Below are positions 42,771 through 58,385 of a stretch of 64,000 nucleotides of DNA, one piece after another (positions within the stretch are counted from its first letter, which is position 1; the number at the start of each line of letters is the position of its first letter). The notes below the pieces were generated by a model, which was given only the letters and a program-made list of their open reading frames with translations, made no database searches and was not told the DNA's origin. This stretch comes from Escherichia coli O127:H6 str. E2348/69 (lineage in GTDB: Bacteria; Pseudomonadota; Gammaproteobacteria; Enterobacterales; Enterobacteriaceae). The stretch is from assembly GCF_000026545.1 (NCBI RefSeq), contig NC_011601.1, one strand, 5' to 3'. The translations under genes were made by a program, and so were the position numbers.

Positions 42771-42790
42771 TTTAAATAACAAAATCCTAA
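42771..42790 (-). promoter_or_regulatory. GAD box (GadE/GadX/GadW site) in the gadBC promoter
   Basis: Minus strand reads TTAGGATTTTGTTATTTAAA, an exact match to the 20-bp GAD box consensus (recalled), about 80-100 bp upstream of the gadB ATG. Confidence 0.7.
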
Positions 42791-53571: not shown

Positions 53572-54333
53572 TCAAATAGCTAAAGCATTCATCGTGTTGT
53601 CCGTGTTCATACCCGTGAGCCTTTGACAACGGTACTCCTTAGAAACTCTCTTCGGACTGTTGCCGAAATGTTTGCGAAACGCATAAATAAAATAAGATGT
53701 ACTGGCATAACCGCATTGTTCAGCAATTTTATTGACTGAACCTTCTACGCGTATCAAATTTTTCGCGTGCTGCATTCTGGCATCTAAAAGAATTTGTGAG
53801 AATGTCGTTTGCTCTTGCTTTAGTTTTTTCTTCAACAGGCTTTCACTGATGTACAGGCAGTCACAAATATCTTTCAGCTTCCATGGGTGCGCCAGCTTCA
53901 TGTTGACAATATTTCTCACTTTCCCAGAAACGGATAGCACACCGTTAGTTAATAGTGTAATGAAACCTTTGCATGCGGCAAAAATAGACAGGCAAGAAAA
54001 AAGCAAAAGCTCTGAAAAATTATGATGATTGCGTTCTTCCGAGTTGAGATAAGCAATCATTTCATTAAGCAATCCAGTCGGTACATTTGAAGCACGTAAA
54101 AACTTCGCAGGAACAGGCACCGTCACTGTCTGGATGTTAGTGCATTGTAGATATTTTTTAATGGTATTTTCATTAAATCCGATTTCTTTAAAATGCCGCT
54201 CATAAGGTTCAAAATGCGTACGAACAGCGTTATCTACCATCAGGATCTCGCCGTCAGAGAAGGCGTAATCTTTATCTAAAATGTTAGCGTTGAAGGCATG
54301 ATGAATAAATATAACAGAACAAACGAGCGACAT
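53572..54333 (-). CDS. ydeO: AraC-family acid-resistance regulator
   Basis: 253 aa; C-terminal AraC HTH (...IAEQCGYASTSYFIYAFRKHFGNSPK...). Confidence 0.9.
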   Translation of the reverse strand: MSLVCSVIFIHHAFNANILDKDYAFSDGEILMVDNAVRTHFEPYERHFKEIGFNENTIKKYLQCTNIQTVTVPVPAKFLRASNVPTGLLNEMIAYLNSEERNHHNFSELLLFSCLSIFAACKGFITLLTNGVLSVSGKVRNIVNMKLAHPWKLKDICDCLYISESLLKKKLKQEQTTFSQILLDARMQHAKNLIRVEGSVNKIAEQCGYASTSYFIYAFRKHFGNSPKRVSKEYRCQRLTGMNTDNTMNALAI

Positions 54334-54407
54334 TTTATCTCCTTAAAACAATAAAGTTTTTATCGATACTTTTTTAACATTTCATATTTATAATTTGCTG
54401 TTTATTT

Positions 54408-54605
54408 TCAGTCTTGCAAACTATTGATAATGAAATGTGTAAGATCCCTTGCAATGCGACCCATTTCTGAAATACCCAGCTGATCAATTGCCGAAAAAAT
54501 GGCTATCAATGTAAGGGTCAGTAATAAGACAACCACAATTACAGACATGATCCCTTTATAGTTGTCTCTTTGCGTGATTTTATTTTTCACTATGGTCGCA
54601 TGCAT
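54408..54605 (-). CDS. safA: two-component-system connector SafA (small membrane protein, 65 aa)
   Basis: ORF 54408..54641; start placed at MHATIVKNKITQRDNYKGIMSVIVVVLLLTLTLIAIFSAI.... Confidence 0.75.
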   Translation of the reverse strand: MHATIVKNKITQRDNYKGIMSVIVVVLLLTLTLIAIFSAIDQLGISEMGRIARDLTHFIINSLQD

Positions 54606-54716
54606 TTCAAATGTGTTTATTAAACGAATGATGTTAAGCATCGTTAATCAGTATGCTTAATATAACAGGCTGGAGAATAGAGGAAATAGGACGGGTGCTT
54701 CAGTACTGAGCGGAGT

Positions 54717-54734
54717 TTCTTACAGCTGTAGGCA
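54717..54734. promoter_or_regulatory. candidate EvgA box upstream of safA-ydeO
   Basis: TTCTTACA-GC-TGTAGGCA fits the inverted-repeat consensus TTCYTACA-N2-TGTARGAA with one mismatch. Confidence 0.45.
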
Positions 54735-54852
54735 GAAGTTTATATCTTATAGTGTGTGGTTTAATTTAATCCATGTGAGCAAATTGCGCAATAATAGTCA
54801 ATGAGGAATTCTTCTGCTGTGCGGATGACAGCAGAAGAAATGAGGAGGCGAA

Positions 54853-57132
54853 TTAATTTGATGGTTCTAATTCAACCGGAATACTTTTATAGCCAGGAAT
54901 GCCACTTAATGGATCGTGGTTATCAAGTGTTAGCATGTGATTCGATTCTGGAAAATAGGTCACCAGTGAGCGGTCAGCCATAGGGTAAATGACCACTTTT
55001 AATCTATCCATGCGGCGTGAGCTACGTTTACCGTCTGGCGTGAGTGCAATAAGATTAACTCTTTCGCCGTTTTTTACACGGCAAATTTTAGCTTGTTTAG
55101 CACTCATAAAGACCACATCTCGTTGTCCGAATACACCTCGATAGCGATCATCCATACCATAAATCGTCGTGTTGTACTGATCGTGGCTGCGTACTGTCGC
55201 CATGACCAGTTTACTGTTAAACGCTGAAGAGGGATCTTCTAACAGCCCTTTGCTGGTAATGAAATTAGCCTTACCTGACGGCGTCATCCAGCGCCTTTCA
55301 GCAGCTGCGTTTATCAGGTGAAAACCACCAGGATGACGGATGCGCTGGTTATAGTCGGCAAACTCTGGCAGCACAGCTTCAATGTCATTGCGAATGCGAT
55401 CATAATCTTCCACCAGATACTCCCAGGCTACCACGCTCTGGGGTAGTGCTGCTTGCGCGATTCCCGCGACCACTGCACACTCTGATTTCAGCATTACACC
55501 GGCGGGTTTTAACACACCACGCGAGGCATGAATCATCGACATTGAATCTTCAACGGTTACCGCCTGCGCACCGCTTTTTTGCATGTCAATCTCGCTACGT
55601 CCCAGAACCGGCAGAATATAGCTATGCCGTGCGGTCAGCAGATGAGAGCGGTTAAGCTTAGTGGCTACGTGTACCGCCAGATCTAATTGCGTTAACGGTA
55701 CAGCGCTCGCTTCCCGATCTGGCATTGCCAGTGCAAAGTTGCCCCCCATGCAGATCAATGCTCGAGCTTGCCCCGCACATATAGCTTGCATGCTGGCGAT
55801 TGCAGCATGTCCAGGTGCATGAGGTGGGGTGAAGCCATAGCGCTCACCCAGGCGATCCAGAAACTCTGCAGACGGTTTCTCGGTGATACCGACGGTTCGG
55901 TCGCCCTGTACATTAGAGTGACCTCGTAGTGGGCAGATACCCGCACCAGGCTTGCCAATGTTACCTTTCATCAACAGCAGATTGACCAGTTGCTGTACGT
56001 TCTGGGTACCATGTTCGTGCTGAGTGATCCCCATTCCGTAACAGATAATGGTTCGTTCGGCAGCGGCATATGCATCAGCAAGTTCGGCGATTTGTGTCTG
56101 ACTTAGTCCAGAAATACGTTCGATATCTTTCCACTCGGAATTGAGCACGTCACGGCGTAGCTCGTCAAAGCCGATGGTATTCGTTTGAATAAATTCGTCA
56201 TCCAGCAATGAGGGCCGACCTGCGGCGCTTGCAGCATCATCGTGCTCAATTAACAGGCGCATCATCCCCTTGAGCAATGCCATATCGCCACCAATGCGCA
56301 CGTTATAGTAGGCACTGGCCAACTGAGTCTCAGAGTTCGTCAGCATTTCAAACGGGTTTTGCGGTGCGGTAAATCGCTCCAGGCCACGTTCCTGTAGAGG
56401 ATTGATGGCGATCATTTTCGCTCCCCGTTTCACTAAAGCGCGCAACGAAGTCAGCATGCGAGGGTGGTTTGTACCAGGGTTATGCCCAATGCAAATGACT
56501 AAATCGCATTTCTCAAAGTCTTCCAGCAACACGGTCCCTTTACCCACACCGATACTCGCTGCCAATCCCACACTGGTCGGTTCATGGCACATGTTGGAGC
56601 AGTCGGGAAAGTTATTGCTCCCGTATTCACGGGCAAAAAGCTGATAAAGAAAGGCAGCTTCATTGGAAGTGCGCCCCGAAGTATAGAATTCAACCTGATT
56701 GGGATCACTATAGCTTTGAAGGCGAGCGCCAATTTCGTCGAAAGCTTGTTGCCAGCTTAATGGCTTGTAACAGTCGCTGACGTCATCATATTTCAAAGGC
56801 TGAGTGAGACGTCCCGCAGCCTCAAGCTCGTGATCTCCCCAGGTAAGTAATGATTGAACCGTATTCTCAGCAAAGAAAGAGGCATTTACCTGCTTATCCG
56901 TGACTTCCCAGGCGATTGCTTTTGCGCCGTTTTCACAAATGTCGAATGACGCACTGTGCTTAGGATCTGGCCATGCACATCCCGGACAGTCAAAGCCCTC
57001 TGGCTTATTCATGTCAAACATGGCAATAACATCCTGGCGTATATCCATCTGCTTACGTACTGCATTCGCTACGGATTTAACAGCACCCCAACCACCGGCA
57101 GCTCCCTGGTAGGATTCAATTTTTTTCTTCAT
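54853..57132 (-). CDS. ydeP: molybdopterin oxidoreductase-family acid resistance protein
   Basis: 759 aa; formate dehydrogenase-like molybdopterin domain. Confidence 0.9.
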
Positions 57133-57380
57133 CTGCTTATCCTGTGTGGAAATGAATTATTAGGATTTGTAATAGCGATGATGCACAGTATATACATAGG
57201 GTTTATCGTCAACATGGATATATAAGAGTAGGGGACTACTCTCTTACTATTTTTACTCTATTATCGTTAAATAATAGAGTAGTATAAATACGATAAGTTA
57301 AGCATCATCTCTCATAGGGTTTAAATTAACATAATTCTCAATATAAAAAATAAGACTCTGGCTTCAATTGTGCGCGGATT

Positions 57381-57398
57381 TTCTTACAAGTGTAGGAT
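57381..57398. promoter_or_regulatory. candidate EvgA box upstream of ydeP
   Basis: TTCTTACA-AG-TGTAGGAT, very similar to the safA-upstream box. Confidence 0.45.
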
Positions 57399-57470
57399 AA
57401 TAGCCTTCACAAAATAATTATCCGCGCAATTTTCGTGAATGGAGCGCATAGACTAATGTCAAAATCACAA

Positions 57471-58385
57471 TTATTCATAGATAAAAGTGACACCAATGAC
57501 TGACTGGACGGCTCCGGCTGCAACCTTATTTCCTGTTTGTCCATAGGTTGCGCTTAAACCCAGAGGTACTTTGCTTTTATTTACTGTCCCCAGGGAGACA
57601 TTTTCTCCTGTTGCCAGTGTTTTTCCATTACGCATCAGAGAGACACCCACGCCCGATGCTTTTGTTGCATCTGGTGCTGTGTTAGCAAACACTTGTCGGG
57701 CACTGTCAGTGGTGGCACCCGAAAGATAAAATGAGAGCTTTTGTTCGCTAGAGCAATATACACCAAGGGGTATTTCTGCGCTTCCAGGAAAGTCCGGGAG
57801 ATTCACGGTGACATTACGACTATCAACGGTGCAACCGCCTGTTGGCATAACAACACTGTTATTTGAAATAATATTCCACGTAAAATTACGCGGATTTCCG
57901 CTTCCTAACGTGGCAATTTTATACATATGAATACGGGCAATAACTTCCCCTGCTTTTATGACAACTCCACCGGCCGCTCCGACTGGGGTAATATAGAGTT
58001 TTAACGGTAATGGCATCGGTGTCTTATCACCAATATCCAATACGTTGGTATTTGTCGTCAACGGGAAGGGGTAGGTCACATTATTCCAGTACAGTGATCC
58101 TTTATATGACTGTAGGGAGCCTGCGAAAGCTGATCCTTGTACCAGGTTTATATGATCAGTGTCGTACCAGCCGCCGTAATCATTCCAGCAACTTATATGC
58201 TGAGACAAGTCTACAACCAGATTCTGGCCCGGTTGTATTACAGGATCGAGATTAACATAAACAGAGGTTGTACCTGCTCCAATACTTGACCCGCCATCGA
58301 CATTACAACTGAAGGCAAAAACTTTGCCTGCCATTAATAGAAGATAAATACCGAACAGGACCTTTATACTGAATGTTTTACCCAT
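57471..58385 (-). CDS. ydeQ: FimH-like fimbrial tip adhesin
   Basis: 304 aa; signal peptide; two-domain adhesin-like; last gene of the chaperone-usher operon. Confidence 0.8.

Follow-up and report, generated by a model that had tools for sequence, protein, structure and literature searches.

Two EvgA boxes at the ydeP and safA-ydeO promoters of Escherichia coli O127:H6 E2348/69

Introduction

In Escherichia coli O127:H6 E2348/69 the acid-resistance gene ydeP lies between two 18-bp inverted repeats, and the question that this locus raises is whether these elements are sites of direct control by the response regulator EvgA and, if so, whether they serve one promoter or two. The initial annotation read them as near-identical, EvgA-box-like elements upstream of safA-ydeO and ydeP, paired around ydeP, and placed them at the head of an acid-resistance cascade ending at an exact GAD box upstream of gadB. 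Previous work provides a firm frame for this reading. EvgA belongs to the NarL family (NarL/FixJ) and binds the safA-ydeO promoter directly in K-12 (PMC9496106, citing Itou 2009), the ydeP promoter is under direct EvgA control and its very low basal activity rises strongly on induction (PMC7174508; PMC4283999), and every known direct EvgA target has an EvgA binding site (PMC4283999). The cascade from EvgAS through YdeO to GadE is standard (PMC4222967). EvgA is identical in ten strains, E2348/69 included, and the EvgS of E2348/69 is acid-responsive, an exception among the B2 strains tested (PMC5706723). The evgAS genes are located outside the stretch of DNA considered here.

Results

The ydeP locus and its two boxes

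The window, i.e. the whole stretch that was analysed, comprises 64 kb of E2348/69, and gene positions were taken from the RefSeq annotation of the identical E2348/69 record (Table 1). The 5.1 kb around both boxes are 100% identical to E2348/69 and were found in 5397 of 5426 complete E. coli genomes. All genes here are carried on the minus strand, and a six-frame list of open reading frames agrees with the annotation. Both elements are present, and each lies upstream of the gene to which it had been assigned: the safA box precedes the safA ATG by 112 bp and follows the ydeP stop codon by 119 bp, and the ydeP box precedes the ydeP ATG by 249 bp. They are alike at 14 of 18 positions, and the differences fall in the 2-nt spacer and the final two bases. 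Between ydeP and the safA box, RNA folding predicts a 12-bp hairpin (-17.5 kcal/mol, z=-5.2), whose stem is kept and whose loop is changed in L014, a genome labelled E. coli that is 84% identical in this region. The hairpin has no clear U tract, is absent from the terminator scan list, and is probably a leaky ydeP terminator. An Rfam search of 54300-57600 returned no known RNA families.

Table 1 Features of the ydeP and safA-ydeO region and of the gadB upstream region in the window
Feature	Position	Strand	Sequence or basis
EvgA box of ydeP promoter	57381-57398	-	window letters TTCTTACAAGTGTAGGAT; sense strand ATCCTACACTTGTAAGAA
EvgA box of safA-ydeO promoter	54717-54734	-	window letters TTCTTACAGCTGTAGGCA; sense strand TGCCTACAGCTGTAAGAA
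TCYTATT element, ydeP	57349-57355	-	26-32 nt after box, about -40 to -34
TCYTATT counterpart, safA	54685-54691	-	box-anchored ungapped alignment
Putative extended -10 of PydeP	57323-57331	-	TGtTAATTT; sequence and common register
Putative extended -10 of PsafA	54659-54667	-	TGtTATATT; same register as PydeP
ydeP copy of ~100-nt direct repeat	57297-57396	-	box, promoter, first ~19 nt of transcript
safA copy of ~100-nt direct repeat	54633-54732	-	ungapped local alignment with the ydeP copy
ydeQ	57471-58385	-	RefSeq annotation
ydeP	54853-57132	-	acid-resistance putative oxidoreductase; RefSeq annotation
Hairpin directly past ydeP stop codon	54811-54841	-	12 bp; RNA fold
safA-ydeO operon	53572-54605	-	safA 54408-54605, ydeO 53572-54333; RefSeq annotation
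GAD box (GadE site)	42771-42790	-	TTAGGATTTTGTTATTTAAA; exact 20/20 match, upstream of gadB

Both boxes match the EvgA motif

For scanning we used TTCYTACA-N2-TGTARGAA, the EvgA consensus that Masuda and Church 2003 together with Itou et al. 2009 reportedly defined, and backed it by a motif re-derived from the K-12 EvgA regulon loci. When TTCYTACANNTGTARGAA was scanned with up to 2 mismatches, the sole matches in the 64 kb were these two boxes, each with 1 mismatch, against 0.06 matches expected by chance, and none of 100 shuffles gave two or more. A symmetrised weight matrix was then trained on five K-12 boxes (frc, yfdX twice, yegR and emrK-evgA), leaving out ydeP and safA. The weight-matrix check that had been proposed for these elements gave a clear outcome, as the two boxes ranked first and second in the window at 23.7 and 21.3 bits, and the next site scored 10.0. 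The matrix rests on a small sample, and across 20 mononucleotide shuffles the best score averaged 13.6 bits with one shuffle reaching 21.2 bits; therefore a lone site is weaker evidence than two correctly placed sites. That single shuffle is what can be said for reading the boxes as chance palindromes without function, a reading that we regard as practically excluded: two matches were found where 0.06 were expected, both are intergenic and correctly oriented and placed, and the retention of the core in thousands of genomes and in the 84%-identical lineage effectively refutes it.

The same motif recurs at other EvgA-activated operons. We fetched the K-12 regions of operons described as EvgA-activated and scanned them for the 18-mer with up to 3 mismatches. 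Intergenic copies with 0-3 mismatches precede frc (no mismatch), yfdX (a pair whose starts are 38 bp apart) and yegR, another lies between emrK and evgA, and safA and ydeP likewise have one upstream. Just two further matches occurred in the scanned K-12 regions at this threshold, both inside coding sequence. Direct regulation by EvgA has been described for emrK and yfdX (PMC5706723). Upstream of gadE, the K-12 scan gave no box with up to 3 mismatches, though the literature has EvgA activating gadE.

Conservation and natural variants

Comparison with K-12, the second check proposed for the elements, agrees with the motif scans in that the safA box is identical at 18 of 18 positions, the core of the ydeP box is conserved and both boxes fall within promoters. 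The safA box is also identical in nine of the ten E. coli genomes compared, and within the 40-mer around it a 28-nt exact word occurs in 4734 of 5426 genomes. The ydeP box, in contrast to K-12 (AGCCTACACCTGTAAGAA on the sense strand, against ATCCTACACTTGTAAGAA in E2348/69), keeps 16 of 18 positions; the differences are one spacer base and one outer base, both non-core, and the E2348/69 version is the closer to the consensus, with one mismatch where K-12 has two. Both versions are widespread, the 40-mer around the ydeP box being of the E2348 type in 1383 complete genomes and of the K-12 type in 1759, and a third variant, ATCCTACACCTGTAAGAA, was the commonest in a sample of ten genomes (six of ten). 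Three natural variants of the ydeP box are thus seen, ATCCTACACTTG.., ATCCTACACCTG.. and AGCCTACACCTG.., while the core CCTACA..TGTAAGAA is unchanged across all ten of the diverse ordinary E. coli genomes.

The divergent L014 retains both boxes (CGCCTACAGTTGTAAGAA and ATCCTACGCCTGTAAGAA), and its ydeP box has CCTACG. In this genome strong conservation sets in at the box itself for ydeP and about 20 nt upstream of it for safA, and further upstream the sequence is diverged with indels, as would be expected if a functional operator bordered a promoter on its upstream side. A scan of 100,044 species genomes (one per species) with the pattern CCTACANNTGTAAGAAANTCC returned Escherichia-type DNA only, L014 included, plus one match in Desulfosporosinus that we attribute to chance, since its surroundings bear no resemblance to the window; the scan supplied no outgroup outside Escherichia.

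A fixed register between box and promoter

When six EvgA-box promoters were anchored on the box without gaps, a -10-like hexamer was found to start at +53 or +54 after the box in all six, and this is the sole register common to them. Also common to the six are CA at +9/+10 and, at +26 to +32, a TC.tATT element in which the TC at 26-27 is invariant and the following a, T and t are present in five, six and five of the six promoters, respectively. In ydeP and safA this element reads TCYTATT and may play a role in the -35 region. We note that TCYTATT, at about -40 to -34, resembles the core of an EvgA half-site.

The register agrees with a published leader start. In K-12 the ydeP 5' leader is taken as -178 to +10; the gadA and gadB leaders begin at -27 in the same list, and constructs elsewhere in that paper are numbered from the transcription start (PMC11210196). 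Position -178 lies 66 nt after the K-12 box and seven bases after the hexamer. The A at 57315 would then be the PydeP transcription start, and by register with PydeP the PsafA start would lie near 54652. Because the leader start sits 66 nt after the box, the ydeP box would span -83 to -66, with its centre at about -74.5, a far-upstream activator position. A promoter scan had proposed a sigma-70 match, TTGAAG-16-TATATT at 57367-57340, for ydeP. We reject it as the main promoter because in one strain TTGAAG is replaced by TTAACG and because its hexamers are out of register in the other EvgA promoters and do not fit the leader start at -178. On these grounds we also reject TATTTT, 29-34 nt after the box, as a -10; this conserved element fits the -35 region better.

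The likeness extends beyond the boxes

The initial annotation compared the two sites as 18-bp elements; the boxes are real, but the likeness is not confined to them and extends over a direct repeat of about 100 nt. When the two upstream regions were aligned locally, the copies proved identical at 67 of 100 positions without gaps (score 34, against a shuffle maximum of 16), and outside the box and the -10 they still agree at 45 of 74 positions (z=7.1). Across four lineages the copies within a genome are 62-69% identical, whereas orthologous copies are 81-99% identical. Ongoing or recent gene conversion between the copies is rejected on this comparison. Mobile-element termini are rejected as well, as the repeats are direct, 67% identical, and enclose only ydeP and the hairpin, and convergence on common functional positions would fall short of 67% identity. 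In the box-anchored comparison, extended similarity to ydeP or safA was not found among the other EvgA promoters. Since conversion would have yielded copies more alike and convergence would not have reached 67%, an old duplication of the promoter module offers an account of the repeat. We tentatively suggest, as a reading at slightly less than even odds, that the whole EvgA-dependent promoter may have been copied by an ancient direct duplication of about 100 bp, so that ydeP and safA-ydeO would have been wired into the regulon by copying and not by independent evolution of sites. Such a duplication was not found stated in the accessible literature beyond the primary EvgA-site papers. YdeO represses its own expression and, indirectly, that of ydeP (PMC11210196), and this reported YdeO-dependent feedback could act at either promoter through the sequence that the copies have in common at and shortly beyond the transcription start.

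The GAD box upstream of gadB

The downstream end of the cascade lies in the same window. The GAD box described upstream of gadB is an exact copy and precedes the gadB ATG (42691) by 80 bp. GAD boxes of gadA and gadB stand some 60 bp ahead of the transcription start. If the gadB transcript starts at -27 (PMC11210196), the box is centred near -63 and spans about -72 to -53.

Discussion

The results of the current study allow the two 18-bp elements to be identified as EvgA operators by their motif, their placement, their orthology with K-12 sites and the fixed spacing to the promoter. As operators of ydeP and safA-ydeO they are already known biology. The direct EvgA control of both promoters that had been put forward is supported by the motif, by its recurrence at other EvgA operons, by conservation and by the spacing to the -10, along with published work on K-12 (PMC9496106, PMC7174508, PMC4283999). 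Taking the sequence tests presented here together with the K-12 literature, we conclude that the boxes are very probably the operators of two separate EvgA-activated sigma-70 promoters, one for ydeP and one for safA-ydeO, which is the next transcription unit downstream of ydeP on the minus strand and has an EvgA box of its own.

We propose the following mechanism for their action. At mildly acidic pH, EvgS phosphorylates EvgA, and an EvgA dimer would be expected, from the protein family and the symmetry of the site, to occupy each 8-2-8 inverted repeat. The box would be centred about 74.5 bp upstream of the start, further upstream than the extended -10 and the weak -35 region, and from there the bound activator could recruit RNA polymerase. 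YdeP provides acid protection, SafA links the response to PhoQ/PhoP, and YdeO activates gadE, whose product GadE subsequently acts at the gadB GAD box in the same window.

The description of paired boxes flanking ydeP holds as geometry, and their position on either side of the gene and mutual similarity could suggest that they form one cooperating pair, for instance through EvgA-mediated DNA looping over 2.66 kb. Some literature speaks of a 'ydeP-safA-ydeO operon' (PMC11052181), and the hairpin after ydeP is without a strong U tract, so that transcription from PydeP may plausibly run on into safA-ydeO. Against such cooperation, each box is followed in the same register by its own complete promoter-like module, with an extended -10 and the conserved element of the -35 region; other EvgA-regulated operons have one box, or two boxes 38 bp apart, and no distant partner; and looping was not found reported in the literature examined. 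We therefore consider a cooperating pair very improbable. No evidence was found for joint action on ydeP, and the downstream box belongs to safA-ydeO. Instead of an interacting pair, the locus is better described as holding what look like two copies of a single EvgA-dependent promoter, one in front of ydeP and one in front of safA-ydeO, with ydeP and a strong hairpin between them.

More remote still is the suggestion that the palindromes are sites of another LuxR/NarL-type regulator, such as RcsB or GadE, or simply AT-rich DNA bound by H-NS. The half-site letters TAAGAA/TTCCTA do occur in the RcsAB box as well. H-NS, for its part, binds ydeO and ydeP promoter fragments (PMC2984483). However, the GadE site is a different 20-mer that stands elsewhere in the window, the TTCCTACA-N2-TGTAAGAA arrangement recurs specifically at EvgA-activated operons, and conservation peaks sharply in the core and does not follow general AT-richness. 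Two EvgA-activated promoters remain the reading that we prefer.

For the EPEC prototype E2348/69, these observations mean that the top of the AR2 cascade, in which EvgA acts on ydeP and, via safA-ydeO, on gadE and then gadBC, is intact at the DNA level. The regulatory map gains nothing new. The modest additions to known biology are the polymorphism of the ydeP box at two non-core positions, the duplicate-like promoters, for which we suggest an origin by duplication of the module, and the rigid spacing. All three could guide promoter design or mutagenesis, and they leave current understanding unchanged.

The closest comparison is with K-12, where the boxes of PydeP and PsafA (b1500) lie at the same loci and are orthologous sites. 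The K-12 ydeP box is like that of E2348/69 in its core, its distance to the promoter and its flanking promoter sequence, and unlike it in the spacer base and the outer base noted above. The boxes of frc, yfdX, yegR and emrK/evgA have the 18-mer, its orientation towards the gene and the distance between box and -10 in common with those of ydeP and safA, whereas outside the common positions their promoters cannot be aligned with either. The neighbouring frc and yfdX promoters resemble each other across their first 35 nt. The GAD box belongs to the same acid-resistance cascade, at its downstream end, and is likewise present in the window as an exact copy, but it is an unrelated 20-bp sequence for a different regulator. 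Sites of the NarL type are inverted heptamers in a 7-2-7 arrangement. The EvgA boxes resemble them in being inverted repeats with a 2-bp spacer, upstream of the core promoter, that serve a response regulator from the same family, and would differ from them in the sequence and length of the half-site (8-2-8, TTCYTACA).

Results and discussion

The inferred 5′ leader of ydeP has a predicted folding energy of -41.7 kcal/mol, far below that of shuffled sequence (z = -4.1), and its predicted fold comprises two local hairpins and a long-range helix in which GAGAUGAUGC pairs with GCAUCAUCGC. This structure is kept across the 10 strains compared, in which the changes are single and G-U-compatible only, and the consensus pairs contain no double compensatory changes. 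By eye, E2348/69 and K-12 differ by one C-G to A-U swap immediately outside the consensus helix. No Rfam family matches the leader.

Also within the leader, on the minus strand from 57308 downwards, is a short, unannotated upstream ORF beginning ATGATGCTTAACTTATCG, the 3′ end of which falls within the first leader hairpin. Owing to a 5-nt indel, its length differs between E2348/69 (13 codons) and K-12 (16 codons), and a clear Shine-Dalgarno sequence is absent at this ORF.

Features of the ydeP leader and the safA upstream region
Feature	Position	Strand	Remarks
ydeP 5′ leader, inferred	57123-57315	minus	~183 nt in E2348/69, 178 nt in K-12
ydeP leader hairpin, 12-bp	57254-57281	minus	predicted fold
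ydeP leader hairpin, 8-bp	57224-57243	minus	predicted fold
TAAGATATA.AC	54735-54755 region, 8-20 nt upstream of safA box	minus	conservation
Candidate safA extension	54606-54641	minus	in-frame ATG at 54641

The hairpin following the ydeP stop codon retains its 12-bp stem in L014, a divergent lineage labelled E. coli (L014:3077-3108, corresponding to 54809-54840 of the window). The 7-nt loops of the two, CATCCGC versus ACGGATG, are apparently rough reverse complements of each other, and an inversion at the palindrome would be expected to leave such a reverse-complemented loop with the stem retained. Upstream of the safA EvgA box, TAAGATATA.AC is kept even in this 84%-identical lineage, whereas the neighbouring DNA is not, and CTATAAG is found at emrK at an equal offset. 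The element resembles a TGTAAG half-site; it may provide an extra contact.

In K-12, an EvgA-box-like match with two mismatches (TTCTTACGCATGAAAGAA) lies within the mdtE coding sequence (L004:5887-5904). Activation of gadE by EvgA has been reported, despite the absence of an EvgA box at three or fewer mismatches upstream of K-12 gadE.

Among the other genomes carrying the region, strain MFDS1022581 (NZ_CP169399.1) has a frameshifted ydeO with both EvgA boxes intact, and strain A20 (NZ_CP028755.1) matches in two pieces, with an annotated ISL3-family transposase beneath. A 13-kb contig deposited under a 'Candidatus Nanosynbacter' metagenome-assembled genome (L016, JARKOR010000108.1) and a contig filed under 'uncultured bacterium' (L017, USHE01000194.1) each share 97% identity with the E. 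coli region described here, and both are most likely E. coli contigs misbinned into those assemblies.

A start at the upstream in-frame ATG would lengthen safA from 65 to 77 codons in E2348/69. The candidate extension, which sits within the portion of the repeat common to the ydeP leader (GATGCTTAAC), is probably incidental; K-12, in contrast, has GATTTTTAAC in place of this ATG and carries an in-frame TAA.
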